Shown here: positions 1 to 37,002 of the stretch, one piece after another
How positions within the stretch are numbered: the stretch's first letter is position 1
Layout: every line of letters starts with the position of its first letter
Source of the DNA: Candidatus Roizmanbacteria bacterium RIFCSPHIGHO2_12_FULL_37_23
GTDB lineage: Bacteria > Patescibacteriota > Microgenomatia > UBA1406 > HO2-37-13b
Assembly (NCBI GenBank): GCA_001788095.1
Contig: MFZX01000038.1
Coordinates: 1-55,301 of the forward strand
Length of the DNA: 55,301 bases
Direction of reading: 5' to 3'
The notes under the pieces: model-generated
Database searches by the model: none
What the model saw: the letters and a program-made list of their open reading frames with translations, nothing else
Told to the model about the DNA's origin: nothing
Position numbers and translations under genes: made by a program

Positions 1-934
1 CATATGCTTCGTTGATTTCTTGATCACTTACTGGGCCCTGACCTTCGGTACGAGATACACCTCCATCTGAAGTTACTCTTCGATCTACTGCTCCTGATGA
101 TAATTGAAAATCGTAGACAACAGTTCCAGAAACTAAGTCAACAAAATATATCCTACATATATCTTCATCTGCGCAGGTAGTTATCATTTGTGTAAAATAA
201 TTTGTGTTATCTTCACTTTCTCCAATGAGATTTAGATTAATAATAGATTGTTCTGAAGCCCTAACATTATATGAACCTGCTCCTTGCACATCTCTCTTTA
301 ATGTATCAAGTGCAATCTCATGAGCTTGCTCTTCTGATATTTGTGCAATGCACTCACTATCAGTTTTCAATAGAGCTCCTGAAATGCTATACACTTCAGT
401 ATCTTCTCCAACATGAAGATTGATATATGATCCATATACGGGAACATCATTGCAACGAATTTGTCTAAAATAATAGTGGGTAGCGTTAACAGAGATTTGT
501 GCTAACTGAAGATATTGAGCTTCTCGATCATCTAAACGTGCGGTTAAGGAAAGATGAGCAGGATCATCAGGGATAAGCTTTCGCGTCTCTTCACTGGGAA
601 TATCAGTACCACGGTATTGGATAGGGCTTGTTGTTGAATATACAGGTTCTCCAGACAAAAATTGAATAACGTTATTACTACTATCTTCTGCGAGAGTATA
701 TAATCCAACGTTTCGTGCTCCAGTAGTAATATAAAAAATTGCAGTCGAATCGTCTTCGATATAATTCGAATCTGTACTTACAACAGCTTCATTCATTGAT
801 AAAAGATTTGATGCTTGACTCTTTCTCTGTGGAAAGGGCTTGTTATCAATTGAATAATAGCGAGAAACAGCGAAGGCTACGATGAATAGAATAAGTATAA
901 CTATAAAAAGAAATGGAGACAGTTTATTTTTCAT
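1..934 (-). CDS. M4 (thermolysin-like) metallopeptidase precursor, truncated at window edge
   Basis: Not in the ORF track; translated by hand from ATG at 934 (GAGG RBS upstream). MKNKLSPFLFIVILILFIVAFAV TM, FTP-like propeptide (THYYFRQ...VPVYGSYINLHV), PepSY-like segment (ISEEQAHEIAL...YFVDLVSGTVV), start of M4 catalytic domain (RTEGQGPVSDQEINEAY). HExxH motif lies outside the window. Confidence 0.75.
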   Translation of the reverse strand, partial: MKNKLSPFLFIVILILFIVAFAVSRYYSIDNKPFPQRKSQASNLLSMNEAVVSTDSNYIEDDSTAIFYITTGARNVGLYTLAEDSSNNVIQFLSGEPVYSTTSPIQYRGTDIPSEETRKLIPDDPAHLSLTARLDDREAQYLQLAQISVNATHYYFRQIRCNDVPVYGSYINLHVGEDTEVYSISGALLKTDSECIAQISEEQAHEIALDTLKRDVQGAGSYNVRASEQSIINLNLIGESEDNTNYFTQMITTCADEDICRIYFVDLVSGTVVYDFQLSSGAVDRRVTSDGGVSRTEGQGPVSDQEINEAY

Positions 935-946
935 ATCAAGCCTCGG

Positions 947-1819
947 TTAGTTTTTAGGAGCAAATCTCAATACAACAGATTTCTCTTTAATGTCACTAAC
1001 CTCAAAAACATATCCAAAAGCTTCACTCGTTTTCAACTGTGCTCCACCTATTCCTCCAGTTATGAAACGAAGAGTCTCTTGTGATTTTCCGTTAGAAACC
1101 ACGAGTTCTACCGAAGTCTCACAGTCTTTACAAACTGGTTCGGGAATCTCAATAGATTTTAGAGTTACCTTCATGCTTGTTTGTGGTATAGAATATAGTT
1201 TTTGCAAAGTCAACGTAACATTTTCGCCAACATAAATAACAACTCCTTGCGCAGACCCTAGTATGTCTTCTGCTGCGACTGTCACAATATTTGAATCATT
1301 GGTTTTACCCGGTATAAAAACAAAAGATAACGGTGATAGTCCCTCATCGTCAGCAGTAAACGTCAATGTAGCAAGTGCAGTATTGGAAAGTTTATATATT
1401 TGTGTTGATTGTAGATTTTTTACACCAGTTAGAGACAAAACTCCCTTCTCTTTTTCACTAGTGAATAACTCGAATCCTTCAATGATATTCTCTCCTTTCT
1501 TGAAGGTAAGTACATTTGTATCATACGTAAGCACGCTATCATAACCACCTATTTCCTGCCCTTGAGAATCACCGTACAACACTATAGAAATCTCATCTCC
1601 TGGATTATATATGTTTTGTCCAAACTCAGTCTGAAGGAAAAATTTACCCTCAGTCTTTATCTTGTCTTGTTTGATTTGTGAATTTTGACTGTTTTTTATC
1701 CGCTCTTGAAATGATTGCTTTGAAGAAACAAAAAATATAATAAGAACGATCACACAACCCACCATAATGACGGGTAAAAGAAACCTATTTTTTTGTTTTG
1801 AGATTTTATTAGGTAACAT
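947..1819 (-). CDS. membrane-anchored cohesin-domain protein with an extra C-terminal beta domain
   Basis: N-terminal TM; cohesin-type motif GDEISIVL...IGGYDSVLTYDTNVL...LATLTFTA...LSFVF...SNIV. Confidence 0.65.
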   Translation of the reverse strand: MLPNKISKQKNRFLLPVIMVGCVIVLIIFFVSSKQSFQERIKNSQNSQIKQDKIKTEGKFFLQTEFGQNIYNPGDEISIVLYGDSQGQEIGGYDSVLTYDTNVLTFKKGENIIEGFELFTSEKEKGVLSLTGVKNLQSTQIYKLSNTALATLTFTADDEGLSPLSFVFIPGKTNDSNIVTVAAEDILGSAQGVVIYVGENVTLTLQKLYSIPQTSMKVTLKSIEIPEPVCKDCETSVELVVSNGKSQETLRFITGGIGGAQLKTSEAFGYVFEVSDIKEKSVVLRFAPKN

Positions 1820-1879
1820 AATGGCACATTGATATTAAAGGTTGGAGACCGAGTGGATTCCCACGACTCGACAAGTCCA

Positions 1880-3835
1880 CTACTCTGAATCGTATCGTTC
1901 GTTAAGCGCAGCAATGGCACATGCCCAGTCACTTGCGTTGACAATATTGTCAAAATTCGAATCTCCATTACGCACACATCCCTCATCTTTACTTCCAAGA
2001 CATAATCGAATCTTTGCCATATCAAATGAATTTACTACACCATCCTGATCTTCAAATGCAAGATCTCCAAAGAGTTGAACAATGTTGGACATGTCTATGA
2101 CGTTGTCTCCAGCTTTAAGATCTATTCTACCTCTATCGCATCGGTAAGCCCCAGGGAAATCTTCTTTTGGTGTAGCATCACAAATCTTTTCTCTCAAATG
2201 TCTCTTAAATTTGGAGTACACTGCATACCCTTCTTTTTCATTGGTATTAACATCAAAAGTAACTTCCCCATTAAGATGTCCTTTGTCATCAAATGTCAAT
2301 TCTACATCTTTAAATATTGGGGCTTTGAGTCCACCATCTTTTAATCCGATTTGTGCGGAAAACTTTTCAGGTGGATTTTTTGGTTTTTGAGGAACGCATT
2401 GTAATCGACCTTTAAGCTTCAAGGTAACATTCCCTTTTTCTTCTGCGCCTCCGCCAACTACGTATGCCGCTATGCCTTTATCAACTGTATATAAAGGACT
2501 ACCCTGAGGTCCAACCACCTGAATTGAAGCAATTGTGAGTTCGCCAGCACCATTACCAATTGCCTTAAGGCTCAACGTATTGGTGTATGAACTTAAAAGT
2601 TCATTCTGGGACTGATCGCATACTACTAATAATTCTATTTGACCAGCTTCATCATTGACATTAAACGCAACTACCTGACATCCTAATGAAAGGGGTGGTA
2701 CTCCTGATGGAAGGGGTGGGATAGTTAAGACTCCAGTTGGGACTTGTGATACCGGTGGAACTGGGGTCATTACAGGAGGCACGCACACACCTTGTGTTTG
2801 ACCCGGTTGAATATCACATCGAAGTCCGCATGTTGGATTTCCATTACAGTATTTATTAATACAGTCCTGGTCATTTGTACAAACAAGCGTATTAGGTATG
2901 GTTGTTGTGGGACTTGGTGTAGATGAAGTTGCTGGTGTACCTGGAGTTGGCGATGTAATAGCTGCTCCTGGACTTGGAGCCGCTTGTGCTAACTCACCGA
3001 GTACTACTGAAGTTCCAAGTCGAGCAGACATTGTACCGGATTGTATAGGTGTAACAGACAATGGTGGTAATGTTGGTCTATCTGGAAGTTCTATTCCAGG
3101 ACCTTTAACACTCTGTCCTTTAAGTATTCCTTTATCATAAGCCACTCTTACATAATATCCTGAAATCTTATCTTGTCCATTGTTTGCAGCGATTCTTAGC
3201 TTATAATCACACGTTGCTCCAACTTGGGTATCACACACTTCTGGAACGAAGGAAGCACTGATTTGACTAAATTCTTCTGGTGGTCCTTGTGGTGGTTCAC
3301 CCCCAGAACAGTCAAATGTTGCTGTAGCAACGTTTCCATAGCCATATTGTGTCCCATCAACATTACCAACAATTTGAGAGTTTTGTGAATCAAATGTAAC
3401 TTTGATAGGATCATTATTAGTACAAGCTACAGTGATTCCGATTACCACAGCGTTTGGTAATTCCTCATCTTTCTTAAGCACTGCGCAACCATACCTGCCT
3501 TTCGCACCGTTAGATTCAGAAATTAACTCACTAAAAATAGAGGTGTCGCCTGTTTCGAGATTAGCGCATCCATCTGAACCTATATAAAGACCATTTTCTA
3601 CGTTAAAAACAGCATCAACTGCAGATATTTTTTTTCCAGGTTCTTGCGGTTTAAATATTACTTGCATGGAAGTCTCGGGGACAGGACCACTGGATGGATT
3701 CATTTCGATATCGATATTGCTTACCGCAGCTTGTGATCGAAGTATATAAACTCTATATAACAGTCCAAAAAAAACAAGCGCAGCTATTGTCGCCACGACT
3801 AAAATATATGTTTTTGATTTCAAAACGGTAAACAT
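1880..3835 (-). CDS. surface protein with two cohesin-like domains, Pro/Thr and Cys-rich insert, C-terminal dockerin-like repeats
   Basis: TM; KISAVDAVF and KISGYYVRVAYDKGIL cohesin-like strands; C-terminal DQDGVVNSFD and DSNFDNIVNASD Ca-loop pair. Confidence 0.6.
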   Translation of the reverse strand: MFTVLKSKTYILVVATIAALVFFGLLYRVYILRSQAAVSNIDIEMNPSSGPVPETSMQVIFKPQEPGKKISAVDAVFNVENGLYIGSDGCANLETGDTSIFSELISESNGAKGRYGCAVLKKDEELPNAVVIGITVACTNNDPIKVTFDSQNSQIVGNVDGTQYGYGNVATATFDCSGGEPPQGPPEEFSQISASFVPEVCDTQVGATCDYKLRIAANNGQDKISGYYVRVAYDKGILKGQSVKGPGIELPDRPTLPPLSVTPIQSGTMSARLGTSVVLGELAQAAPSPGAAITSPTPGTPATSSTPSPTTTIPNTLVCTNDQDCINKYCNGNPTCGLRCDIQPGQTQGVCVPPVMTPVPPVSQVPTGVLTIPPLPSGVPPLSLGCQVVAFNVNDEAGQIELLVVCDQSQNELLSSYTNTLSLKAIGNGAGELTIASIQVVGPQGSPLYTVDKGIAAYVVGGGAEEKGNVTLKLKGRLQCVPQKPKNPPEKFSAQIGLKDGGLKAPIFKDVELTFDDKGHLNGEVTFDVNTNEKEGYAVYSKFKRHLREKICDATPKEDFPGAYRCDRGRIDLKAGDNVIDMSNIVQLFGDLAFEDQDGVVNSFDMAKIRLCLGSKDEGCVRNGDSNFDNIVNASDWACAIAALNERYDSE

Positions 3836-3837
3836 AT

Positions 3838-4623
3838 TTATTGAATAAATTCGTTATTTATTAGCCATATACTTACATCAATATTGTTTGAGGCACCATC
3901 ACCGTTTACATCACACGTTGCTCCTTCTCCATTCATTGATGAGCGTATATTTTCCCAATCTTCAAGATCTATAGCCCCATCACAATTACAATCACCTTTG
4001 CTATATGTTGAACATCCCTTGTCTTTATCAATTGGTGGAGTCAATGATGGAATCGGTGCATCATCTGTTATGTTTATGGTAATCTGGGAAGAATCAGCAT
4101 TAACTACTAAAGGTTGAGCTCCAGCAGCTTTCCATAATGGACTATCAGCTAACTGTATAAATCCTTGGGCAGGGGTTGTGGTCCCACTTTTTGGTTGTAA
4201 AATAACGCCGGTAATACATTTTGCCCCACTCTCGAGTAAATCGTCCTTTCGTAGAGCCCCAAGCGCAAACTCTGCAGATCGCGAAGCTGGATCTATACGA
4301 AAACCAAGTTCTGTATCTAGTTTAAACGAAGCATTTTTACAAAATTCATCTTGTATAAGTCCAAGGACATCAATATTATCAGAATATCTAAAAGACCCTT
4401 GAACACCTGCAACACCAACTCCTGTATTGGTTGATCCAAAAATATGAGCAAGGCATAGTCCTTTTGCATTACAAGGGATGTCTTTTTCTGAAATAAAAAC
4501 TTTCATGTTTGTATCAAGTTGAGCTTTTGAAGGTAAAAGATAATTGTTTAACATCATCCAGAAAAATACTGTTGAGAGAACGAAGACGAGGCTTAAAATT
4601 GTAAATCGAACTTTTGAATCCAT
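3838..4623 (-). CDS. surface protein, cohesin-like domain plus C-terminal dockerin
   Basis: TM; VAGVQGSFRYSDNIDV beta strand; DCNCDGAIDLED and DVNGDGASNNID repeats. Confidence 0.6.
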   Translation of the reverse strand: MDSKVRFTILSLVFVLSTVFFWMMLNNYLLPSKAQLDTNMKVFISEKDIPCNAKGLCLAHIFGSTNTGVGVAGVQGSFRYSDNIDVLGLIQDEFCKNASFKLDTELGFRIDPASRSAEFALGALRKDDLLESGAKCITGVILQPKSGTTTPAQGFIQLADSPLWKAAGAQPLVVNADSSQITINITDDAPIPSLTPPIDKDKGCSTYSKGDCNCDGAIDLEDWENIRSSMNGEGATCDVNGDGASNNIDVSIWLINNEFIQ

Positions 4624-4629
4624 ATATTT

Positions 4630-5346
4630 TTAGATTTTAGATTGCGAAACGAATACCTTACGCAAGTCATTGAAATCAAAAATGTCAACAACACTATTGC
4701 CATCAAAATCACAAAAAAGAGTTTGAGACTGTTGATTGATTTCATTGCGTAACTGATCGATATCCAAAAGGTCAACTTTTCCATCTTTAATTCCGGGTCC
4801 TTGGCTACTCGCACAATCTCCGATTTGCCCTGTTGGTGGTGGTGTGGTTTGGGGAGGTGTGACAGTTAGACCGGAACCCATACACTGATTTGTGCAAAAT
4901 AATACCAACGGTTGTATATTTGCGTCTGAAGCAGCTTTTTGCTGTAAGATGTTAATATCATTTTGGTCAACAACTCCATTTCCATCAACATCACACATAC
5001 TACAATCATAAACTCCTGTTGGAACTACTACGCTTGGACGCGCAATAACACCAGTAACATTAGTGCTCGGGGCAGTGGGTATAGGTATGAGATTACAACA
5101 TGGATTACGACCATTACATGTTTGTCCAGGAGCTTGGTATACGCATACATAGCTACCAGATCTTGAACTATACATGCATTTAAGCCCAGTTGCGCATCCT
5201 CCATATCTAAGTCCGCATCTTTGTCCACATTGTCTACGTCCGCTTTGAGCGAGAATAGATGCGTTCTGTGTAGTGGCGAAAGAATCTTGTTTAAGAAAAA
5301 TAAAAAGAGCAATTAAAAAAAATGAGGCTAAAAGTACTTTTTTCAT
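4630..5346 (-). CDS. secreted Cys-rich protein with dockerin/EF-hand-like repeats
   Basis: Start moved to MKKVLL (5346); Cys-rich N-terminus; DVDGNGVVDQND, DGKVDLLD, DFDGNSVVDIFD. Confidence 0.6.
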   Translation of the reverse strand: MKKVLLASFFLIALFIFLKQDSFATTQNASILAQSGRRQCGQRCGLRYGGCATGLKCMYSSRSGSYVCVYQAPGQTCNGRNPCCNLIPIPTAPSTNVTGVIARPSVVVPTGVYDCSMCDVDGNGVVDQNDINILQQKAASDANIQPLVLFCTNQCMGSGLTVTPPQTTPPPTGQIGDCASSQGPGIKDGKVDLLDIDQLRNEINQQSQTLFCDFDGNSVVDIFDFNDLRKVFVSQSKI

Positions 5347-5368
5347 ATCAAATATATTGAATAGTTCC

Positions 5369-5398
5369 AGCATAACATATTATTTCTCCGTATGTCAA
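5369..5398 (-). promoter_or_regulatory. sigma70 promoter for the 5346 surface-protein operon
   Basis: TTGACA-N18-TATGCT with TG extended -10 on the minus strand. Confidence 0.5.
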
Positions 5399-5399
5399 C

Positions 5400-5431
5400 A
5401 AAAAAAGAGTCCTGATAAAGGACTCTTTTTC
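5400..5431 (-). terminator. intrinsic terminator of rplJ-rplL
   Basis: aaaaaagagtcct-gataa-aggactcttttt hairpin with A/T tracts on both sides. Confidence 0.75.
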
Positions 5432-5436
5432 TCAAT

Positions 5437-5471
5437 CCGATACCTAATACGTAATACCTAATACGTAATAC
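5437..5471. repeat. 7-bp-period TAATAC(G/C) intergenic repeat, copy 1
   Basis: ccgatacctaatacgtaatacctaatacgtaatac; first 28 bp identical to 42771-42798. Confidence 0.8.
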
Positions 5472-5480
5472 ATATTTGTG

Positions 5481-6026
5481 TTATTTCAGCTCTATCTTCC
5501 CACCTGCTTCTTCAATCTTTTTCTTTGCAGCTTCTGCATCGTCTTTTTTAACACCAGCTAATATCTCTTTTGGTGCTCCTTCAACGAGTTTCTTTGCATC
5601 CATAAGACCAAGATCAGGTTTGACTTCTCGTACTGCTTTAATAACAGCTAATTTATTACTTCCTGCATCAGCAAGTACAATAGTAAAGGTTGATTTAGCT
5701 TCAGCAGCTTCGCCTGTTTCACCACTAGCAGAAGCTCCTGCTGGAGCAGCTGCCATAGCAGGCATAGCTGAGACTCCAAAAACTTCTTCAAGATGACCGG
5801 CTAATTCTGAAAGCTCAAGCGCTGATAAGCCCTCAATTTCTTTAGCTATTTTTTCCACTTTTGCTGAAGCGGCTTTTGCTTGTTTCTTGGGCTCAAGTTT
5901 TTCTTCTTTTTGTTTCACTTCTTTCTCAGCTTTTTTTGTTTCCTCTTCTACTTTTTTTGTTTCTTCTACTTTATTTGGTTTCTCTGTTGCTTCGGCTTTT
6001 TGATCCTCTGATTTGTCATCTGCCAT
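5481..6026 (-). CDS. rplL: 50S ribosomal protein L7/L12 with Lys/Glu-rich N-terminal extension
   Basis: [49 protein letters not shown]; ATG at 6026 follows a GGGGGGTG SD. Confidence 0.95.
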
Positions 6027-6064
6027 AACGTTCACCCCCCTCGTTAATTTATAATTTATAAATC

Positions 6065-6622
6065 TTAATTTTTAATGCTTTTTTCGCTTGCATTCTTCAG
6101 GACCTGTATTAACTTCATTGAACTATAACGCATACTAAATACAGTTCTTGAATGTGGCGAGCGCAGTGATGTAATAATCTTCGCAATTAACTCGTTCTTT
6201 CCTGGTAAAACTGCTAGTTGCACAAGTTTTGCTTCTTCATAAATTTCGCCATCTAGTAGCCCGACCTTGAAAATTAAACCTTCTTCTTCTTTGGAGAATT
6301 GATGAAAAGCTTTAAGCCCACTCATCCAATCTTCAGAAAGAAATAAGAGCGCAGATTGTCCTCGCACATTTCCTTGTAAGGTTTTCACTACGTCTTTTGT
6401 GTACAAATTGTTTGAAAGTTGTAACTGTGAGAGTGCGACGTTTAAAAGAGTATTTTTTATAACAGTAAAATGGGCTTGATTCCCTGTTTCTCGAAGTTTT
6501 TTCCTAAGGTTTTCTAATCTTTTGTGACTAGATGTAGTAAAACCAACGAGTACAAAATGAGGATTATGAGCGAGTTGATTATATAATTGAGAAACGTATT
6601 CTCTTTTTTGTAAGTTTGGCAT
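6065..6622 (-). CDS. rplJ: 50S ribosomal protein L10
   Basis: [29 protein letters not shown] motifs; directly upstream of rplL. Confidence 0.92.
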
Positions 6623-6624
6623 AG

Positions 6625-6690
6625 TTTTCTCTCCCGCCGGAAAATGTTTTAATCCCGCCTCTGGCAGGAAACCTGCGATCTTTGAGACAA
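6625..6690 (-). ncRNA. probable L10 leader (autoregulatory cis-element)
   Basis: Minus strand AAGATCGCAGG-TTT-CCTGCCAGAGG resembles the AAGAC.GCAGG...CCUGC.AGA core of L10 leaders; lies between promoter and rplJ start. Confidence 0.55.
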
Positions 6691-6696
6691 AAGTAT

Positions 6697-6724
6697 ATTA
6701 TACAGAAGTAAAAGACAATTGCAA
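6697..6724 (-). promoter_or_regulatory. sigma70 promoter of rplJ
   Basis: TTGCAA-N16-TATAAT on the minus strand. Confidence 0.55.
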
Positions 6725-6827
6725 GACGAAAAGGTTTTAAACATCACATACGCGATGCATTATCTACTTTACACATCTACAATCACTACTACTTGAAATC
6801 ACCCGTCGAATTCTGTACTGTAGAATT

Positions 6828-7316
6828 ATGCAGAGAATTTTTTTTGCAACGATTTTGTTTCTTTTATTAATTGTTGGAGCACTTTTCTCTCCTCTTGTTT
6901 ACGCTCAAAATTCAGATGATAATAGTATTGAAGGCGAATATGTCAAAAATGAAGTGATTGTGAAGTATAAAGACAATCTGACACCAGATGAACTCGAGTT
7001 GCAGGTTAGTGAACGACAAAACATGAAGCGCTCTTTTGTAGGGAGAATTCAACTTTTCTTTGGTGATTTAAAGCTAAAATTTTCGAAACAGGATAATCCT
7101 GAGATACAACTTTCTCGACTGCAAAAGACCGATATTGAACTTGGAGTTATAGAGAAAGAGCGTTTGTTACAAGGATCGGCACAAGCTGGTCCAAATGTGT
7201 ATATAATAAGAACTGATGGATCAAAAACAGTACAGCAAATGATTAAAGCATATTCGTCATTGCCAGAAGTTGAATATGCAGAGGTACATAATATTTTACA
7301 ATTTTATCAACAATAA
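6828..7316 (+). CDS. secreted stand-alone S8 protease propeptide-like protein
   Basis: Signal peptide; YVKNEVIVKYKD...YSSLPEVEYAEVHNILQFY aligns by eye with the prodomain of the next gene. Confidence 0.65.
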   Translation: MQRIFFATILFLLLIVGALFSPLVYAQNSDDNSIEGEYVKNEVIVKYKDNLTPDELELQVSERQNMKRSFVGRIQLFFGDLKLKFSKQDNPEIQLSRLQKTDIELGVIEKERLLQGSAQAGPNVYIIRTDGSKTVQQMIKAYSSLPEVEYAEVHNILQFYQQ

Positions 7317-9007
7317 TGAGAAAAAGCTTACGTAATTCTTTTATACTCCTTGTTCTGGTTGGAGCTTTTCATAGTTCCGTTAATGCTCAATTTGATCCCT
7401 CTTCTCCACTCCCTCCTGATAATATTGTTGAAAATGAATATATTATTAAGTTTAAAGAGAATCAAACTCTTCAGGATGTTCAAACTCAAGTTGCTGTCAG
7501 ATCTAACCGGAGTCAAAACCCCTTAGGTATACTCCAAAACTTCCAGCAGGATCTTTCTTTACAGATCAAAGGTGAAGATAAACCGGAAGAAATTCTCACA
7601 CACTATCAATCTGTTGATACAAATATAGGAGTTACTACACGTGAGTCTCTAGAGCCACTTACAAATACGTTTGTATATAAAACAAATGGTACAGAAACCC
7701 TTCAGGAAGTCCTTGCCGCGTATGAGGATCTACCTATTGAGTATATTGAGCCCGTTAACCTGCTCTATTTTTATAACACACCAAATGATACTGATTACAA
7801 TTATCTATGGGGAATGGATAAAATCAATGCGGAAACTGCATGGGATCAGACAACGGGATCACAAAATGTTAAAGTGGCTGTTGTTGACTCAGGTGTTGAT
7901 AAAACACATCCAGATCTTCAAAATAATGTTATTTACACCAAACAAGTTGGCGCAGACTGCCCATCGCAAGGAGATCTTGTTGGTCATGGCACCCATGTGT
8001 CTGGTACTATCGGGGCTATGGGAAATAATAATCGTGGAGTCGCAGGTGTAAATTGGACAGTAAGCATCCTTGGGTATTGCGCAGGAACCGACGGTCTCCC
8101 AGAGACCTATATTATTCGCTCAATTCAGGATGCAGTTCAAAACGGTGCAAAAGTGATTAACATGAGTTTTGGTGGACCTGGTGATGATCCTTCGGTAAAA
8201 GCTATTATTCAACAAAATCCAAATGTTTTGTTTGTGGCATCTGCGGGAAACTGTGGCTATCTTCCCCCCAATCAAGGAGATCCGAATAATCCAGCATGTA
8301 CTCAAGGCGGTGATGCAAGTCACTATTTTCCTGCCCGATATGGAGCAACCATGGATAACGTTATTACCGTCGCTGCTACAGGACCAAATAACGAATGGGC
8401 TAAATACTCAAGTTATGGACAACCAGTCACTATAACAGCTCCAGGTGGAAATCCTCCAAATGGAAGTCGCACATGTGCAAATGATGGAAGTGACTGCATA
8501 CACTCTACTCTACCTGGCGGAGCGTATGATGCATGGGCAGGAACGAGTATGTCAGCTCCACACGTTACTGGTCTTGCGGCGCTCATGCTTTCAAAAGATT
8601 CTTCACTTACCCCTAAACAAATCAAGGAAAAACTTTCTCAAACAGCAGTGGATTTGGGACCAGCTGGTAGAGATGATAAATTTGGAAGTGGAATTATCAA
8701 CGCTCCTGCTGCACTTAATGCCATTGGCAATAATCCACCAACAGGTGGACCAACATCCCAGCCTACAAATCCTCCACAAGGGACTGCGACTCCTACCTTT
8801 AGTCCTGCCATCACTACCCCACAACCTACACCAAGCGTAGGTGGTACACATCCCTGCCCAGCTGAAGCTGAAAAAGGAAATTATGATTGTAATTCAGTCA
8901 CAGATGATAATGATCGGCTTGCTTGGGAGAGAGAATTTAAAGCTGGAACTGTAACACTTGGGCCTTTCTTCGAATGGATTAGAAGAGCACTCTACAATAG
9001 AAATTGA
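7316..9007 (+). CDS. S8 subtilisin-like serine protease with Pro/Thr linker and dockerin-like tail
   Basis: Catalytic motifs VAVVDSG, HGTHVSG, GTSMSAPHVTG; C-terminal GNYDCNSVTDDND. Confidence 0.92.
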   Translation: MRKSLRNSFILLVLVGAFHSSVNAQFDPSSPLPPDNIVENEYIIKFKENQTLQDVQTQVAVRSNRSQNPLGILQNFQQDLSLQIKGEDKPEEILTHYQSVDTNIGVTTRESLEPLTNTFVYKTNGTETLQEVLAAYEDLPIEYIEPVNLLYFYNTPNDTDYNYLWGMDKINAETAWDQTTGSQNVKVAVVDSGVDKTHPDLQNNVIYTKQVGADCPSQGDLVGHGTHVSGTIGAMGNNNRGVAGVNWTVSILGYCAGTDGLPETYIIRSIQDAVQNGAKVINMSFGGPGDDPSVKAIIQQNPNVLFVASAGNCGYLPPNQGDPNNPACTQGGDASHYFPARYGATMDNVITVAATGPNNEWAKYSSYGQPVTITAPGGNPPNGSRTCANDGSDCIHSTLPGGAYDAWAGTSMSAPHVTGLAALMLSKDSSLTPKQIKEKLSQTAVDLGPAGRDDKFGSGIINAPAALNAIGNNPPTGGPTSQPTNPPQGTATPTFSPAITTPQPTPSVGGTHPCPAEAEKGNYDCNSVTDDNDRLAWEREFKAGTVTLGPFFEWIRRALYNRN

Positions 9008-9076
9008 AATTTGAGATTTGAGATTTGAAAATGTAACTCCGGTATGCATTCTCAAATTTCCAATTTCAAATCTCAA
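9004..9076. repeat. imperfect 30-bp inverted repeat of 7-bp units (TTTGAGA) between convergent genes; probable terminator
   Basis: ttgaaatttgagatttgagatttgaaaatg versus cattctcaaatttccaatttcaaatctcaa. Confidence 0.65.
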
Positions 9077-9369
9077 ATAACTTTTACAGCCTTCAATAAA
9101 AAAAACGTAATAAAGTAGAATAAAAGCACCTGGAATAGTGGTAAAAATAATGTAAGAAATATTGCTGCAATTGCGTGTAAAAAAAATGCTTCGTTGTGAA
9201 GTGATGGCAAAAGTCCTTTAAGAATGAGCATTATTATTGTCAGGGTTAAAAGTGTTGGTTTATCAAACTCCCATAAAGGCCAGTTGAAATAAACAGCTGC
9301 TCCAATGAAAATGGCAGCAAGGAGAAGAAAAATTTCTTTTGTATCAAAATAGAATGGTCCGAGATACAT
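9073..9369 (-). CDS. small hypothetical membrane protein
   Basis: 98 aa, nearly all hydrophobic, 3-4 TM. Confidence 0.6.
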   Translation of the reverse strand: MYLGPFYFDTKEIFLLLAAIFIGAAVYFNWPLWEFDKPTLLTLTIIMLILKGLLPSLHNEAFFLHAIAAIFLTLFLPLFQVLLFYFITFFLLKAVKVI

Positions 9370-9457
9370 GTTAATTCTTAATGTACCATTCGTTGAAATC
9401 TATTGCAACTCATTAAGCTTGTATCTGAGGGGTGCAAATAAGACCATTCTGTCGCGC

Positions 9458-9486
9458 TTGACAACATTATGTTCGTTATCTATAAT
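9458..9486 (+). promoter_or_regulatory. consensus sigma70 promoter with internal palindrome
   Basis: TTGACA-N17-TATAAT; aacat-t-atgtt at 9463-9473; ATG 7 nt downstream. Confidence 0.75.
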
Positions 9487-9493
9487 ACCTACC

Positions 9494-9718
9494 ATGTCAA
9501 TTGAGAACACATCGAATAAAAAAATATCACTCGATGACTTACCGGATCTTTTAACAATTCGAGAAGTTGCAGAAATTCTACGAGTTTCTCCACTTACTAT
9601 TAAGCGCTGGGGTAAAAGAGGAAAACTCCCTGCAATTCGTATTAATTCTCGTGGCGATCGAAGATATCGCAAAGAAGTGATACTTCGTCTTCTTGGAGTC
9701 GAAAGCACTACAGTATAA
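9494..9718 (+). CDS. excisionase/MerR-like helix-turn-helix DNA-binding protein (HTH_17-type)
   Basis: LLTIREVAEILRVSPLTIKRWGKRGKLPAIRINSRGDRRY; start moved to the ATG after the promoter. Confidence 0.85.
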   Translation: MSIENTSNKKISLDDLPDLLTIREVAEILRVSPLTIKRWGKRGKLPAIRINSRGDRRYRKEVILRLLGVESTTV

Positions 9719-9739
9719 AATTGGTATATAATTGTACTA

Positions 9740-10399
9740 ATGATTTTGTATGTAGCTTTTTTCGCCCAAATTATCCTCATCTACTTCATTAGTCAGTGGA
9801 CTATACAGCATCTTTTTCGAGCCTTATATAGAATAACAAAAAGTACGTTCGTAAGTTCTTATATTCTCGCACTACTCTATTTTCCCGGTACTCTTCTTCA
9901 TGAGTTGTCTCACTTTATAACTGCGGTTGCTTTACTTCTCAATGTTAAAGAGATGGATCTCATTCCAGTAGTAAAAAAGTCAGATGATGATAAACGATAT
10001 GTAAAGTTAGGTTCTGTAGTATTTGAACAAAAGGATTATTTCAGGAGTATGCTCGTAGGCATTGCACCTTTTTTTGTAGGACTTGGTTTTTTCTTTTTTA
10101 TGTTTGAGTATGATATTTTCCCTAATGAAAACATATGGATAAATGTGCTTTCGCTCTATCTCCTCTTCTCTGTTTCTTCGAGTATGTTTTCGTCAAAAAA
10201 AGATTTGGAAGGTACAATCATTATTGTCCCGCTCATCATACTTATTTTTTCCATATTAGTAGGGTTTAATATCGATATCACACGAATATTTTTGTCTGAA
10301 ACTACGCTGGAAATCATGAGAAGATTGAATATGTACTTGCTGATTGCAACAGGTGGAAATTCACTAATTTACGTAATTCTACGTCTGTTTCGTATCTAA
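9740..10399 (+). CDS. M50-family membrane metallopeptidase-like protein
   Basis: Multi-TM; FPGTLLHELSH zinc motif; LVGIAPFF. Confidence 0.75.
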   Translation: MILYVAFFAQIILIYFISQWTIQHLFRALYRITKSTFVSSYILALLYFPGTLLHELSHFITAVALLLNVKEMDLIPVVKKSDDDKRYVKLGSVVFEQKDYFRSMLVGIAPFFVGLGFFFFMFEYDIFPNENIWINVLSLYLLFSVSSSMFSSKKDLEGTIIIVPLIILIFSILVGFNIDITRIFLSETTLEIMRRLNMYLLIATGGNSLIYVILRLFRI

Positions 10400-10442
10400 C
10401 CGAGATCTGGTTGTAATTGATTTTTTTTAGTACAATTCTTAT

Positions 10443-10598
10443 ATGCCAGATGAAGCAGATGTATTACCAAAAGGAGAAGCTCCTCCACAATTACCTGCAA
10501 TCGATCAAATCGTTGTTGATTATGAACATGGAACTACAACTTCAGCACATAGACAAGAAATGCTTGATCGATTGTTACAAAAGGCCGAAGAGAAATGA
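10443..10598 (+). CDS. small hypothetical protein (51 aa)
   Basis: Hand-translated MPDEADVLPKGEAPPQ...LLQKAEEK*; ATGA overlap with the next gene. Confidence 0.55.
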   Translation: MPDEADVLPKGEAPPQLPAIDQIVVDYEHGTTTSAHRQEMLDRLLQKAEEK

Positions 10599-10867
10599 AC
10601 ATAATCATATATACAGGGCGAGTATGTCCGTTTTCACAGCAGGTTGTGGATGATATGAAAAGTCAAAATGTGGATTTCATTCATAAGAAGGTCGATGAAG
10701 ATCCAGAAGCGCTTTTAGAAATGTATAAACTTACAAAAAAAATTGCAACACCTGTGATTACTATAGAAAAGGATGATCAAAAATATACACTACTTGGATA
10801 CACACAGGAGAATAAAAAAACGTTACAAAAAATCGTAGAGCTAGCTAAACAAAGTAAACAACTCTAA
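10595..10867 (+). CDS. glutaredoxin/NrdH-like protein (CPFS)
   Basis: IYTGRVCPFS, ATPVITI. Confidence 0.8.
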   Translation: MNIIIYTGRVCPFSQQVVDDMKSQNVDFIHKKVDEDPEALLEMYKLTKKIATPVITIEKDDQKYTLLGYTQENKKTLQKIVELAKQSKQL

Positions 10868-10934
10868 GTACTCTTTCTTGTATTTTTTATTCAGTTAAGA
10901 GAAATTTAATATATATTTGGTATACTCTCCCGCT

Positions 10935-11168
10935 ATGATAATTCTTGCGAATACTACAAAAAAACTTTTATCAGATTTTTGTCTTGATATCTCAAAAGCC
11001 TATTTTATAGTTACGTTTGTAAATCCCGTATTATCACTACAAGATATTACTATGCTTTTGGTTTTATTGACAAAGGGTATTATCAGTAGTACTATATTTT
11101 TAACTCTTTCATGGTTATTAATTCCTCATCGATATAATGGATCAAAATATTATCGTACAGGCATATAA
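10935..11168 (+). CDS. small hypothetical membrane protein
   Basis: Two hydrophobic helices; TGG-TATACT 8 nt before the ATG at 10935. Confidence 0.5.
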   Translation: MIILANTTKKLLSDFCLDISKAYFIVTFVNPVLSLQDITMLLVLLTKGIISSTIFLTLSWLLIPHRYNGSKYYRTGI

Positions 11169-11253
11169 CTCATTTACGTTTTTCGGACTTCTTGCGGCTA
11201 TCGCCATCTTACTGCTCGTTATTGCCGCTAAAAAAGAACCAGGCAAGAAGTGA
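11137..11253 (+). CDS. 38-aa single-TM peptide
   Basis: Hand-translated MDQNIIVQAYNSFTFFGLLAAIAILLLVIAAKKEPGKK*. Confidence 0.4.
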   Translation: MDQNIIVQAYNSFTFFGLLAAIAILLLVIAAKKEPGKK

Positions 11254-11294
11254 TTTCTTCACTTATCGATTGTAGGTTTTAGCAGAAACGACTT

Positions 11295-11372
11295 CGTGGG
11301 GACTCCGGGAAAACAACCGGTGTGTGATGCAGCGCATGCTGCGATCGACCGGATGATTCCGGAGTCCCCACG
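11295..11372. repeat. long multi-stem hairpin at the 3' end of the island operon
   Basis: cgtggggactccgg / ccggagtccccacg 14-bp stem enclosing ccggt/accgg and gcagc-gcat-gctgc stems. Confidence 0.7.
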
Positions 11373-11401
11373 CGAGCCGCACGTCATGTGTGCTTCCGTC
11401 C

Positions 11402-12013
11402 CTACGGGGCGGGTGGTGCCGGAGGCGGTGGGGGCGGATCGATTCGCCCGAAACTCTGGGCAACAGACCAACGCCATCGGCGCGTTCCTCCACGCTTGGC
11501 GTAGATACGCCAGCGGACGTACGCGCCTCGACCTCCGTCGATCACTCCTCGACGTGCCTCCAGCTCGAGATCCAGAACTTCGACCACGAACCAGAACCAC
11601 AGGAAGCCGAGACCGACGACGAGGAGAACCGTCCACGGAAGTCCCGCCCAGACAGCGACGGTCAGCGCCAGCAGGAACGCCGCCAGAAGGTACTTCCGTA
11701 ACACGAAGGCTACGACACCTCCTGCGCCAAGCGCAATCGCGCCGATGAGGCGGTAGACGTACTCGTCCATCAGGTGCAGGGCAGGGCCCTGCCAGGACGC
11801 GTACATCAGCCATCCGAGACCGATCAGGATCACAATCGCCACGGGCCACTCGCTCGGCGAGATGCGGCGGTCTTCCAAGACCAGCATCATCAAGCCGACC
11901 AGAATGGCGGCGAAGAGACCCGTCTCCGTGCCGAGTCCCATGACCCGGTCCAAGACGAACCAGACGATGGCCGCGATTGCGACCATTCCGACAAACTTCA
12001 GAAGCGTTCTCAT
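11402..12013 (-). CDS. hypothetical multi-TM membrane protein
   Basis: AAGGAG SD; about 6 hydrophobic segments; Arg-rich then poly-Pro tail. Confidence 0.65.
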   Translation of the reverse strand: MRTLLKFVGMVAIAAIVWFVLDRVMGLGTETGLFAAILVGLMMLVLEDRRISPSEWPVAIVILIGLGWLMYASWQGPALHLMDEYVYRLIGAIALGAGGVVAFVLRKYLLAAFLLALTVAVWAGLPWTVLLVVGLGFLWFWFVVEVLDLELEARRGVIDGGRGAYVRWRIYAKRGGTRRWRWSVAQSFGRIDPPPPPPAPPAP

Positions 12014-12055
12014 TGCCCCATGCTCCTTTCGTGAGTTGGGCAGGTTGGGTTGGTA

Positions 12056-12556
12056 CTACCTAGTTGACCTGCGCGCCACGGGCTTGTACATGAACACTCC
12101 GAGCGTTGCTAGCGTTCTTCCGTTGCGCTGAACGCGACCCCCGGCTCCCGCCGATCTCGCGTTCTTCTGTGGGTAGAAGCGATATCCGCGCGCGAGCGCG
12201 ACGACGAAGGCAGCCACGAGCACGAGCAGGATGATGAGCCAGATCGCAGAACTACCTCCTCCCTGCACCCTGATCGGCTCGATCGACAAACTGCTGACGG
12301 AGGTTCCGACGAACGGGTAGACAATCCACCCGACGACGGTGAGCACGACGACCAAGATCGCGACCAGCTTCCGCAGGCCGAGCGAGCCCAGTAGCACGAC
12401 GAGCGTGCTTACCAAGCCACACATCGACATGAGGAACAGGCCGACGATATACGGCAATGCTCCGATGGCGGTGACGAAAGCCACCACCACCTGCACTGCC
12501 ACGATGGCCACGAGAACGACGATCGCCTTGAGCGTGGACCACGTTCCGGGATTCAT
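12056..12556 (-). CDS. hypothetical membrane protein
   Basis: Start moved to MNPGTW (GGAGGAG SD; ATGA overlap with upstream ORF); about 4 TM. Confidence 0.65.
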   Translation of the reverse strand: MNPGTWSTLKAIVVLVAIVAVQVVVAFVTAIGALPYIVGLFLMSMCGLVSTLVVLLGSLGLRKLVAILVVVLTVVGWIVYPFVGTSVSSLSIEPIRVQGGGSSAIWLIILLVLVAAFVVALARGYRFYPQKNARSAGAGGRVQRNGRTLATLGVFMYKPVARRSTR

Positions 12557-12786
12557 TGCTCTTCTCCTCCCTGTGAGCACGGGTACTCGGCCGGTTGGTC
12601 GAGCATGATGAAGGTAACTGGTTGCTGCACGGTGAGCGCGCTGAGCTCGACTACTTCTGAGCTCGTTACGCTCGAAACGATGTGTCGGTCGATCACGGCG
12701 AATCCCGCGTACATGCCCACGAGGGGCAGCAGCAGGACCAGCGCGCAAAAGACCAGTAGGACTATTCTGTTGTGGGACGGATCCAT
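12553..12786 (-). CDS. hypothetical single-TM protein
   Basis: 77 aa; ATGA coupling to the downstream ORF. Confidence 0.5.
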   Translation of the reverse strand: MDPSHNRIVLLVFCALVLLLPLVGMYAGFAVIDRHIVSSVTSSEVVELSALTVQQPVTFIMLDQPAEYPCSQGGEEQ

Positions 12787-12964
12787 GGGGCGGTGTCTCT
12801 CTTTCTTTTTTGTCTCTAGACGTTAGAGACTGGAAACTAGAAGCTTTATCTAGCTTCCAGATTCCAGCCTCCAACTCTAAAAAAAAACGTGCGACCCGAT
12901 TTTCAAAGAACAAAATAAGCACGAGAATGGGACGCAAATCTCCCATCATGTGCCTAAATATAGC

Positions 12965-12997
12965 CTATAGTATACTATAGCTAGTATAAAAAGTCAA
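12965..12997 (-). promoter_or_regulatory. sigma70 promoter facing the GC-rich island, -10 inside a 16-bp palindrome
   Basis: TTGACT-N17-TATACT on the minus strand; ctatagtatactatag at 12965-12980. Confidence 0.6.
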
Positions 12998-13041
12998 GAT
13001 TTGACAATCCAATATAGAAAGTAAAAACCCGAATTTTCTAT

Positions 13042-24140: not shown

Positions 24141-24704
24141 TTATTCCTCGCTATACAATTCCGCCATATCTAGCAGGTTTACGCATCCATCCTGATTAAC
24201 ATCGAGTGCAGGATCGAATCCTTCATCTTCCTGACAGAGCCATAAAGCATCTTCGGTAAATGAATTAAAACTAAGTGAGAATAATCGGTTATCAGGCGCA
24301 GCAGGTATATAGGCTAATGTTGGACTTGCTAGTCCTGTGTGTATTCGTACATAATAACCTGTTCCTGGATTAAGATTCACAGGTGGATCGAGGTCTTGGT
24401 TTGAAAGATCATGAGTAATTGTTGCTTTGGAATCTTCTGCACATCTAAACTGCGCTCCATCAATACCAATTGAACAGTCAACTGTAGCGCGTACCTCTAG
24501 GTCTGTCACGAATGAAATTCTAAATCCTGTTCCTGAAACCCTCTCAGTCGTAATATTGGTCGGTTTAGAAGCAAATTCTGCTTTTGGTCTGAAGCGTGTA
24601 ACGACAAAAGCACTAACAACTAAAAACGGAAGCAGTACAACCAAAAGAACGATTCCTAAAAGTCGTTTATCAGATTTCAATTTTAACAAAAATTCTTTTC
24701 CCAT
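24141..24704 (-). CDS. TM-anchored FN3-like domain protein with a single dockerin/EF-hand loop
   Basis: ISFVTD...LNPGTGYYVRI; DVNQDGCVNLLD. Confidence 0.55.
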   Translation of the reverse strand: MGKEFLLKLKSDKRLLGIVLLVVLLPFLVVSAFVVTRFRPKAEFASKPTNITTERVSGTGFRISFVTDLEVRATVDCSIGIDGAQFRCAEDSKATITHDLSNQDLDPPVNLNPGTGYYVRIHTGLASPTLAYIPAAPDNRLFSLSFNSFTEDALWLCQEDEGFDPALDVNQDGCVNLLDMAELYSEE

Positions 24705-24710
24705 ACTCCC

Positions 24711-25553
24711 CTATAGTATCAATACTTTGACTATTATACTAATAACAACTAATAATATACCAACTCCAATCGCTGTACCCGTTGTTCTTAGAATACCTGT
24801 TGCCGGAAGTCCTGATGGTGTAGGACTTATGCTCACTGGAGACGGTGTCGCGCTTGCTGTAGCTACAGGTGCTATAGAAGGCGTGATAGTAATTGAAGGA
24901 GTAATTGTTCGAGTAGGTGTAATTGAAGGAGTGATTCGACCAGTTGGCGTAATACTTGACCTTGGAGATGGTATTCGCGTTGGGATAATATCACCTGTTG
25001 GACGTGGTGTTGGTGTTGCGCTCCCCCCTACTCCAGACACTATGAAAGTTGCTTCGTTAAGCTTGCTACATTCGATAATATCTGTAGGTCGAGCACCTTT
25101 TTTCACATTGATGTTTGAATCCCGTGTATCACCAGGCTGACATAAAAAATTAACAACATTACTGCTTTCAAGAACACCCTCAAAAACAATAGTGCCAATG
25201 AGTCCCTCTCCGGATTTCCCATCTGCAGCTCCGGGATTTATTGATGCTCCCATGTTTACTTTATTGTTCATGATTTTTTTAAAAAAAAGCGGAAAAAATT
25301 TTTCACTATCAGACGGTTCTTTTATACTTGCAATGCGTAATTGTGATTCATCATATAATATAACAGCTTCAACTGTTTTTGGCGCTTCTCCTTCAGTATT
25401 AATTTTTACATTAACATCAAATTGCTCTCCTTTTCGCACCGTTTTTGAGCTTGGTTCCAAAGTGAAATATGCCGCGTATGCACTCGAGGAGAATCCGAGA
25501 AGAAATATTGTTGCAACAACTATAAACAGCGTATATCTCGCATGCAATTGCAT
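24711..25553 (-). CDS. cohesin-domain protein with Pro/Thr linker and C-terminal TM anchor
   Basis: Start moved to MQLHARY; GEQFDVNVKINT...VEAVILYDESQLRI...GTIVFEG; LPATG followed by a hydrophobic tail. Confidence 0.7.
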   Translation of the reverse strand: MQLHARYTLFIVVATIFLLGFSSSAYAAYFTLEPSSKTVRKGEQFDVNVKINTEGEAPKTVEAVILYDESQLRIASIKEPSDSEKFFPLFFKKIMNNKVNMGASINPGAADGKSGEGLIGTIVFEGVLESSNVVNFLCQPGDTRDSNINVKKGARPTDIIECSKLNEATFIVSGVGGSATPTPRPTGDIIPTRIPSPRSSITPTGRITPSITPTRTITPSITITPSIAPVATASATPSPVSISPTPSGLPATGILRTTGTAIGVGILLVVISIIVKVLIL

Positions 25554-25622
25554 ATAAGAGATGGTACATGATACCGGCGAATTAAACAAGAGGTTCGGAT
25601 CGGATATGGTATGATAAAAGAT

Positions 25623-28208: not shown

Positions 28209-28216
28209 ATTGTAGT

Positions 28217-28816
28217 ATGGGTAGAATGAAGAGCATGGATGACGTTTCAAAAGACATTAAGGATTTTCACAAGCTGAATCCTAATAGAAAACTTGCTATT
28301 CTAGGAATCTTTCTTTTCGTTTTCGTTTCTGCAATTCTCATCGGCGTTTATCTTTCTAAAGGTAAAACTTCACTTCCTTCATTACAAGAAGGCACAACTC
28401 AACAAACACAGGAGGCTGATAAAACAACTCTTTCTATGACGTCAAGCGCAACAGAAGTTGCAGTTGGTGACACTGTAACAGTAACCGTAGCACTCGCACA
28501 AACTCCTGTACAAGCAGTCGATTTGGTTGTGAATTTTGATCCAACCATGTTCAAAGCTTCAAATGTTGTAAACGGTACCGTATATGATGATATTTTGAGA
28601 AGTGAGGTTAAAGACGGACAGGTTGTTGTATCAGCTACAGTAAGTCCAAGCGATCCAACAAACTTAAAAACCGGTGACGTATTCACATTTACACTTCAAG
28701 CTCTTAAAGCTGGAAAAGGAGTACTTGAGTTTGATCCTAAACTTACAATTACCGCGAAAAATGGTGTGAATACATTAGGAACTGCTGGAGGAGCAACGAT
28801 CACAGTCGCACGATAA
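28217..28816 (+). CDS. TM-anchored single cohesin protein
   Basis: VGDTVTVTVAL...VQAVDLVVNFDP...VFTFTLQAL...LEFD. Confidence 0.75.
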   Translation: MGRMKSMDDVSKDIKDFHKLNPNRKLAILGIFLFVFVSAILIGVYLSKGKTSLPSLQEGTTQQTQEADKTTLSMTSSATEVAVGDTVTVTVALAQTPVQAVDLVVNFDPTMFKASNVVNGTVYDDILRSEVKDGQVVVSATVSPSDPTNLKTGDVFTFTLQALKAGKGVLEFDPKLTITAKNGVNTLGTAGGATITVAR

Positions 28817-28827
28817 TACGCTGTAAC

Positions 28828-31782: not shown

Positions 31783-31784
31783 TT

Positions 31785-32612: not shown

Positions 32613-32632
32613 TAAGCTAGCCTCAGCTTCGC

Positions 32633-32663
32633 CTCAAATCCCACCTCGGGAGTGGGATTTGAG
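32633..32663. repeat. REP palindrome, left of RAYT
   Basis: ctcaaatcccac-ctcggga-gtgggatttgag. Confidence 0.85.
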
Positions 32664-33323
32664 CTTGGAGTTCGACTTTAGCCTCTTTTGATAGTCCGCT
32701 CTATCTAAAACGAATTTCATGTATGAATCTCTGTTTGAAAAATAAGACAAAATTTTCTCTGTAGCTATTAAATCGTCTTTCTCCTTGCCAGAATAGAAAG
32801 AAAGCGATGAATATTTATATTGCAGAAGCTCTTCAGTTGAAGACAAGACTCCTGAACTATAAGGATTGAGATGAATATAGGCAGAAGTGTGAATAAATTG
32901 TTCTCTAGTTTTAATATGTTGGGTTTTAAACCTACCTTGATATAGAGGCCCAACTCTTTCTATCGCTGTATTTAGATAGCGAGCATAACTATTCTCAAAA
33001 TTTGACATAAATATAGAAATACCATGATCGGATAATTGTTTGAGCTGAAAATGAAAATGATTAGGCATTAATACAAAACTTAAAATTTCAACGTGGAATT
33101 TCTTTTCTGAGCGGGTTTTATCAAAAAGTACTTGCTGCTCACAGGGTGGTAATTTATTAAAATCTGATAACTTCATAGGTAGATTGACATTTTGATAAAA
33201 AAATATTGCTTTATAAGCTCTCTCGTATGATTCTCTACCTGAAAAAATCTTTTGGCGATTAACACCTCTATTATAGACGTGATAATATTCTCCTTGAATT
33301 AGTGGAATCTTTCTTCCTGGCAT
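32634..33323 (-). mobile_element. REP-associated tyrosine transposase (RAYT, IS200/Y1 family)
   Basis: YYHVYNRG, FVLMPNHFH (HUH), YQGRFK, YIHLNP; flanked by two REPs. Confidence 0.88.
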
Positions 33324-33378
33324 TTTCGCTAATATATCAGAAAGTTATTAAATTTCTATTAGAGCCCCGTTATTCTGC

Positions 33379-37000: not shown

Positions 37001-37002
37001 CG

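Follow-up and report, generated by a model that had tools for sequence, protein, structure and literature searches.

The DNA studied here, which we call the window, is the entire 55,301-nucleotide contig MFZX01000038.1 (C38) of Candidatus Roizmanbacteria bacterium RIFCSPHIGHO2_12_FULL_37_23, an uncultured bacterium of groundwater, whose 1.09-Mb genome comprises 45 contigs and is 95% complete. Five open reading frames (ORFs), A to E, occupy window positions 2-5373 on the minus strand, with the ribosomal protein genes rplJ and rplL upstream of gene A on the same strand. The genes are separated by 6 (A-B), 2 (B-C), 60 (C-D) and 12 (D-E) nucleotides, and they encode proteins built from cohesin and dockerin modules, ending with the start of an M4 metallopeptidase. 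We regard it as fairly probable that A-E form the first half of an operon of nine genes (A, B, C, D, the M4 gene E, F, G, H and I) for a cohesin-dockerin surface assembly, each product of which bears an N-terminal signal or anchor helix. The features within the window are as follows (TM, transmembrane; PT, proline/threonine; AF2, AlphaFold2).

5400-5425, minus strand: intrinsic terminator of rplL, hairpin GAGTCCT-ttatc-AGGACTC (7-bp stem) then T7, read directly from the sequence
5369-5398, minus strand: sigma-70-like promoter-like site TTGACA-18 nt-(TG)TATGCT, 10/12 consensus matches, extended -10 TG
4630-5346 (or 4630-5373), minus strand: gene A, 238 aa (247 aa from 5373), signal peptide, Cys-rich mini-domain, PT linkers, dockerin
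4939-4995, minus strand: gene A, single F-hand loop, a second single-loop Dockerin_1 stretch
4663-4788, minus strand: gene A, full C-terminal dockerin (Pfam Dockerin_1, 27.4 bits; orthologue alignment)
3838-4623, minus strand: gene B, 261 aa, N-terminal TM helix, cohesin, PT linker, dockerin
4063-4512, minus strand: gene B, cohesin, residues ~38-187 (AF2 and Foldseek)
3856-3999, minus strand: gene B, dockerin, residues 209-256 (Pfam Dockerin_1, 24.4 bits)
1880-3835, minus strand: gene C, 651 aa, TM/signal helix, two cohesins, X beta-module, dockerin
3308-3724, minus strand: gene C, cohesin 1, residues 38-176 (alignment A1, AF2/Foldseek)
3092-3268 and 2453-2680, minus strand: gene C, split cohesin 2, residues 190-248 and 386-461 (hhalign, AF2)
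2681-3091, minus strand: gene C, P/T-rich insert with Cys-knot, dividing cohesin 2 (hhalign, AF2)
2066-2434, minus strand: gene C, X beta-module, residues 468-590 (alignment A1, hhalign, AF2)
1892-2065, minus strand: gene C, dockerin, residues 591-648 (orthologue-profile matches)
947-1819, minus strand: gene D, 290 aa, TM anchor (13-31), cohesin, conserved C-terminal domain without assigned fold (200-290)
1229-1627, minus strand: gene D, cohesin, residues ~65-197 (Pfam Cohesin, 25.3 bits)
2-934, minus strand: gene E, first 311 of 919 codons, M4 peptidase N-terminus, running off the contig
866-922, minus strand: gene E, TM anchor, residues 5-23 (hydrophobic segment)
371-481, minus strand: gene E, FTP propeptide motif, residues 152-188 (Pfam)

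An earlier note on this DNA, made by reading the sequence without database searches, had described a promoter at 5369-5398 followed by tightly spaced genes, and both are present. The promoter-like site (5398-5369) begins immediately past the rplL terminator (5425-5400), which itself lies between the rplL stop (5481) and that site. The match is one of consensus only, and the region as a whole shows no excess of promoter-like sites (15 observed versus 22 expected from shuffles); it is the position that makes a promoter plausible here. The first ATG of gene A (5373) falls within the -10 hexamer, so that the start at 5346 (MKKVLL...) is the more sensible one, and from it the protein opens with a classic signal peptide (MKKVLLASFFLIALFIFLKQDSFA). 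Between the rplL stop and the terminator hairpin, a short tandem repeat (GTATTAC GTATTAG GTATTAC GTATTAG GTAT) occupies window positions 5440-5471 on the minus strand.

We counted as a dockerin any module that spans roughly 60 residues, contains a pair of calcium-binding loop-helix (F-hand) repeats and exceeds the gathering threshold of Pfam (Dockerin_1, PF00404, 22.9 bits). A, B and the M4 peptidase carry such modules at 27.4, 24.4 and 27.9 bits, and DxNxDGxxD/NxxD loops are visible in the dockerin sequences. The dockerin of C scores 17.1 bits alone, below the cut-off, and 28.4 bits summed in frame; it is recognised through orthologues gathered from relatives, whose profile (alignment A1, 13 sequences) matches 16 solved dockerin chains in the PDB with a best E-value of 2.7e-4. 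The corresponding profile for B (A2, 7 sequences) matches the solved dockerin 1daq (E 6e-4), and a scan with NCBIfam added nothing beyond Pfam. Pairwise hhalign comparison separates the dockerins into two types, a Cys-containing one in A and B (96%) and one linked to an X module in C and the M4 peptidase (99.7%), with 66-95% between the two groups; at the level of sequence, these are distinct types.

Cohesins were taken to be nine-stranded beta-sandwiches (jelly-rolls) of about 140 residues, recognisable via profile or fold (Pfam Cohesin, PF00963, 24.1 bits). Those of D, F and G are found by Pfam, those of B and C by AF2 models with Foldseek, and that of the M4 peptidase by hhalign. The D cohesin aligns with F at 100% and with G at 98.5%. 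PDB sequence searches with B and C, used singly or as profiles, returned dockerins and no cohesins, and hhalign of the B N-terminal domain against the operon cohesins gave nothing above 20%. When the AF2 model of that domain (domain pLDDT, the per-residue confidence, ~88) was compared with the PDB by Foldseek, 49 of the 50 best matches were solved cohesins, with TM-scores of 0.6-0.75. For C, whose folded domains have pLDDT ~80-90, the top matches were the CipA CohI9-X-DocII structures (4fl4_C, 3kcp_A) and the ScaA type II cohesin dyad (3l8q), at E ~1e-9, followed by single solved cohesins at TM-scores of 0.56-0.65; in these alignments the modules of B and C share 8-16% sequence identity with solved cohesins. 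The second cohesin of C is interrupted: residues 185-245 align with the first third of the G cohesin (hhalign 95%) and residues 380-462 with the corresponding part of C cohesin 1 (87.5%). The domain list of the earlier note (a dockerin protein, cohesin-like plus dockerin, dual cohesin plus dockerin, cohesin, M4) was thus correct by Pfam, profiles and AF2/Foldseek, and structure prediction, which it had suggested as a check, gave models of B and C that resemble solved cohesins and Coh-X-Doc; both proteins join cohesin and dockerin in the manner of adaptor scaffoldins, as it had said.

Several smaller features of A-C stood out. The N-terminal TM helix of B (residues 7-28, window 4540-4605) is unusually conserved across genera, with S17, T18, F20, F21, W22 and N26 invariant; this exceeds what is expected of a plain signal peptide, and the segment may be a recognition or interaction helix. 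Within the insert of C cohesin 2 lies a Cys-rich mini-domain (CTNDQDCINKYCNGNPTCGLRCD…GVC; residues ~317-355, window 2770-2885; AF2 pLDDT ~85), which in alignment A1 is found only in the source genome, P0001 and one orthologue from a genus that we label g7. Gene A also opens with a Cys-rich module (window 5090-5230), unlike that of C.

Gene E continues on a second contig, C27. The last 10 bases of C27 are the first 10 of the window, the reading frame is continuous across the join (...INEAY/DILGD...), and Peptidase_M4 and Peptidase_M4_C occur just once in the genome, at the end of C27. The region is uninterrupted in three independent assemblies (JGI 3300025311, ENA ERZ27254844 and JGI 3300002105), against which the joined protein has 0 mismatches in two and one X in the third. 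Given that three independent contigs encode the same 919-aa protein, the contig junction is verified. The features beyond the break are these.

C27:20316-22148, minus strand: gene E remainder, M4 catalytic domain to dockerin
Gene E residues 304-378: M4 catalytic domain with HEYQH (Pfam Peptidase_M4, 40.5 bits)
Gene E residues 390-547: M4_C (Pfam Peptidase_M4_C, 110.5 bits)
Gene E residues ~610-740: cohesin-like module (hhalign 98.2%, E 3e-14 to G)
Gene E residues 742-860: X beta-module (hhalign 100% to the module preceding the C dockerin)
Gene E residues 866-909: dockerin (Pfam Dockerin_1, 27.9 bits)
Gene F, 214 aa: TM anchor and cohesin (Pfam Cohesin, 25.8 bits)
Gene G, 220 aa: signal peptide (SSAFA/AT), cohesin, LPQTG, hydrophobic stretch, basic tail (K) (Pfam Cohesin, 44.5 bits)
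Genes H and I: paralogous TM proteins with an fn3-like domain

The complete protein runs from TM anchor through FTP, M4 catalytic domain, M4_C, PT linker, cohesin-like module and X module to dockerin. Family M4 is defined by Peptidase_M4 plus M4_C, an HExxH motif, a Glu zinc ligand about 20 residues downstream and an equivalent of His231; H370, E371, H374, E398 and H455 are invariant across 10 orthologues, and by its sequence the gene E product is a peptidase of this (thermolysin) family. M4, M4_C and Dockerin_1 were each found in 10/10 orthologues, and Pfam Cohesin in 3/10. The earlier note had advised reading the adjacent contig for HExxH and a dockerin, and both are there, the motif as HEYQH; it had considered its proposal endangered if the M4 gene lacked a docking module and was separately transcribed, or if the domains were not cohesins. 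In fact the docking module is present in all 10 orthologues examined, the modules are cohesins, and the 12 nucleotides between D and the M4 gene contain no terminator-like site. In relatives of genus g4 (L022, L027 and L028), the M4 cohesin is directly recognised by Pfam and BLAST, with 36% identity to G, and the places of A and B are taken by a pair of short proteins (119-182 aa), of which BLAST recognises just a dockerin-like stretch.

Beyond what the earlier note described, we found the anchoring half of the system (F, the LPXTG-cohesin protein G, and H/I), together with the protease's own cohesin-like module. The four further genes lie beyond the M4 gene, both on C27 and on the independent contigs, with gaps of 58 (M4-F), 22 (F-G), 5 (G-H) and 96 (H-I) nucleotides, and the block is closed by a divergent M50 peptidase gene. 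Anchoring scaffoldins of the ScaE type combine a signal peptide with one cohesin and end in an LPXTG sorting signal, and their genomes encode a sortase. Gene G encodes a predicted protein of exactly this type: LP[QKR][TS]G with a hydrophobic segment and basic tail is present in 11/11 G orthologues, and four sortase-family genes lie on contigs C9, C12, C25 and C35. With this conserved sortase signal, G should be linked to the cell wall. There should then be three anchored cohesin sockets, G at the wall, as predicted, and D and F at the membrane. A sortase-assembled Gram-positive pilus, which would have several subunits each with LPXTG and a pilin motif beside a pilus-specific sortase, was considered and rejected: LPXTG occurs in G alone, and none of the sortase genes is within the operon. 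H and I are tandem paralogues in the source genome (C27 17504-18919; L004 7505-8920, minus strand); relatives have one H/I-like gene after G, often overlapping the G stop by 4 nucleotides.

The order rplJ-rplL-A-B-C-D-[M4]-F-G-H/I, followed by the M50 gene, is present in 12 relatives of the same family, representing at least seven genera. Where present in these relatives, the M4 gene is single-copy and inside the operon. Three of the 12 belong to genus g7, and in these D is followed directly by F, leaving A-B-C-D-F-G-I intact; no M4_C match was obtained in any of the five g7 genomes searched, one of which is a single contig. The dyad of X module and dockerin occurs in 58/61 genomes of the order and marks 475 clusters (E<=1e-10) among 1.84 billion cluster representatives, nearly always at the extreme C-terminus. 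Of 78 of these clusters that were sampled, most are without recognisable cargo; 74 match Dockerin_1, M4 peptidases account for 12, and a Pfam cohesin is present in 11. The Pfam repertoire of the source genome amounts to about 12 ORFs with a dockerin and 6 with a cohesin, of which a single one lies outside C38 and C27.

To get a mechanistic perspective on these proteins, we considered how the modules might fit together. On balance we favour a wall- and membrane-anchored cohesin-dockerin display assembly with the protease as optional cargo, its pairings being drawn from co-occurrence. G, joined to the wall by sortase, and D and F, held in the membrane, would serve as base sockets. C and the M4 peptidase both end in a homologous dyad of X module and dockerin, and these X-dockerins would plug calcium-dependently into the anchored cohesins, either G or D/F. 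That the two share a socket type is suggested by g7, in which no cohesin gene has been lost along with M4. B, C and the M4 peptidase each carry cohesins of their own, which may recruit A and B through their dockerins, perhaps along with dockerin proteins encoded elsewhere in the genome, to give a tiered, branched scaffold. Enzymes of the thermolysin family mature by autoprocessing of the propeptide. By analogy, the M4 enzyme may be synthesised as a membrane-tethered zymogen and cut from its N-terminal anchor when the FTP propeptide is processed, and the C-terminal dockerin would then retain the mature protease on the cell surface.

Four points weigh against this assembly. Which cohesin is assigned to which dockerin is purely inferred. 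The B cohesin is unseen by sequence profiles and was identified via its predicted fold alone, from a model built on 7 sequences. The N-terminal hydrophobic helices of B, C, D, F, H and I are possibly left uncleaved, so that B and C, for example, could be anchored at one end and docked at the other. Finally, dockerins outside cellulosomes can have partners other than cohesins.

The alternative that survives best is that the modules are unpaired and the products act as independent adhesins or surface proteins, whose ligands would be on a host cell, in the matrix or on some other cell. Non-cellulosomal cohesin- and dockerin-like modules are widespread, many of them without an identified partner, dockerins are joined to VWA adhesin-like proteins at nearby loci of the window, and with an N-terminal anchor on every protein, docking is not strictly needed for surface retention. 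We nonetheless think this improbable, given that seven cohesins and four to five dockerins are kept in one operon across at least seven genera, that nearly all the cohesin and dockerin genes of the genome are on C38 and C27, and that two dockerin types stand alongside distinct cohesin types, the signature of matched pairs.

Slightly less probable again is the interpretation offered by the earlier note, a branched surface scaffold that positions a protease as a proteolytic analogue of a cellulosome, here taken as a dedicated complex that arrays proteases for synergistic protein degradation. The scaffold modules and the docked M4 peptidase do stand: the M4 gene is in the operon, its dockerin is present in all ten orthologues, M4 is the commonest recognisable catalytic cargo of the X-dockerin type (12/78 sampled), and a subtilase of family S8 is a conserved divergent neighbour. 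What does not stand is the dedication to proteolysis. The operon has one recognisable enzyme, the tail of the S8 subtilase has no dockerin by hhalign (<=10%) or Pfam, and no other dockerin-bearing peptidase was found in the genome. Since the three g7 genomes in which the operon was read keep the whole scaffold, and all five g7 genomes lack M4, the scaffold does not exist solely to position the protease. A cohesin-dockerin system for surface display, in which the protease is cargo that can be absent, describes it better than a proteolytic cellulosome of many enzymes does.

A self-polymerising lattice or fibre, in which B, C and M4 chain head to tail with G as wall attachment, is very unlikely: three proteins do combine cohesin and dockerin, and the Foldseek list for C includes the Gram-positive pilin BcpA and integrin legs (both strings of Ig-like domains), but these matches (TM-score 0.1-0.3) are generic to beta-sandwich repeats, a dockerin would have to recognise the cohesin type of its own protein, and with a sortase signal only in G and no pilin motif seen, a sortase-built pilus is unlikely.

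Bacteria of the candidate phyla radiation (CPR) are thought to live attached to other cells, and how they display surface proteins is little known. Here, a connector best known from cellulose degradation organises a conserved operon in a genome of ~1.1 Mb; the literature searched yielded no description of such an operon in CPR bacteria. We offer the hypothesis that, once the propeptide has been cleaved, docking lets an episymbiont keep its secreted protease on the cell surface. Should the pairings prove real, they would also provide a small, experimentally tractable set of orthogonal protein connectors. A broader and distinctly more tentative proposal, which we consider less likely than not, is that of a lineage-wide tiered surface organelle of ultra-small Microgenomates-type CPR bacteria, with anchored cohesins, interchangeable X-dockerin cargo and the protease as both cargo and adaptor, for attaching to and digesting the surface of a host or prey.

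Other parts of the two contigs add context. Further cohesin-dockerin loci lie at window positions 24141-42484 and 48532-52477; they encode VWA-plus-dockerin proteins (865 and 984 aa) and dockerin proteins (275, 1191 and 691 aa), each near a 199-aa TM-cohesin protein, and a further Pfam cohesin is at 48850-49191. The S8 subtilase (563 aa, window 6828-9007, plus strand) is preceded by a 162-aa ORF resembling a Fervidolysin_NPro prodomain, whose stop overlaps the subtilase start. This arrangement is conserved, the two genes lying divergently beside rplJ in at least five relatives. The Cys-containing tail of the subtilase (…GNYDCNSVTDDNDRLAWEREF…) is conserved in one orthologue; as a dockerin candidate it was rejected, with no Pfam dockerin match and hhalign values no higher than the 10% noted above against the operon dockerins. 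A GC-rich patch (0.47-0.63 versus ~0.37 elsewhere) spans window positions 11000-12013 and contains a 203-aa multi-TM ORF (11402-12013, minus strand) with a run of prolines at its end; the 5' part of this ORF (nucleotides 1-418 of the reverse-oriented locus L040) also appears at the edge of an independent JGI contig. Rfam gave no match in window 1-13000. On C27, patches of 55-67% GC (versus ~38% otherwise) lie at 1-1000, 5000-6000 and 8000-10500, one of them with 11 N, and they include a PT-rich, high-GC open frame at 2-1156; a chimeric join, foreign DNA or masked sequence is a possible source.

The closest known system is the sca cluster of Ruminococcus flavefaciens (scaC-scaA-scaB-cttA-scaE), with its sortase-anchored ScaE (PMC2930009). 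Scaffoldin genes are clustered in both; G resembles ScaE in its signal peptide, single cohesin and LPXTG, C and M4 resemble ScaB and CttA in ending with a module and dockerin predicted to bind the anchor, and B resembles ScaC as a small adaptor with one cohesin and one dockerin. R. flavefaciens is also recorded to have peptidases that bear dockerins, a metalloprotease among them (PMC2930009). Unlike that cluster, the operon has no glycoside hydrolases (GH), carbohydrate-binding modules (CBM) or other carbohydrate-active module, it has additional membrane-anchored cohesins (D and F), its enzyme itself bears a cohesin, and its host has a CPR-type genome of ~1.1 Mb and is not a Firmicute. Pfam scans of the nine operon proteins and neighbouring loci found no GH, carbohydrate esterase (CE), polysaccharide lyase (PL) or CBM domain, and because it has no carbohydrate-active or CBM module, the system is not a cellulosome sensu stricto.

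The best structural match to C, Clostridium thermocellum CipA CohI9-X-DocII (PDB 3kcp, 4fl4), has the same C-terminal order of cohesin, X and dockerin. CipA, however, has nine cohesins, a CBM3, anchoring through SLH proteins and cellulases, whereas C has two cohesins, one split by an insert of ~140 residues, and an N-terminal hydrophobic helix. Non-cellulosomal cohesins are likewise among the Foldseek matches (Archaeoglobus fulgidus 2xdh; Clostridium perfringens 2vo8 and 2jh2), and the amylosome of R. bromii is a cohesin-dockerin assembly of non-cellulase components (PMC4611034). In contrast to such non-cellulosomal pairs, the modules here belong to a conserved nine-gene operon that sits beside genes for ribosomal proteins in an ultra-small genome, and the enzyme predicted to be docked is a thermolysin-type protease. 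That protease shares FTP, Peptidase_M4, Peptidase_M4_C, HExxH, the downstream Glu and the His231 equivalent with the M4 pre-pro-peptidases of MEROPS. It differs from the usual M4 enzymes in its C-terminal extension of ~370 residues, where a PT linker, cohesin-like module, X module and dockerin take the place of PPC/PKD-type domains.

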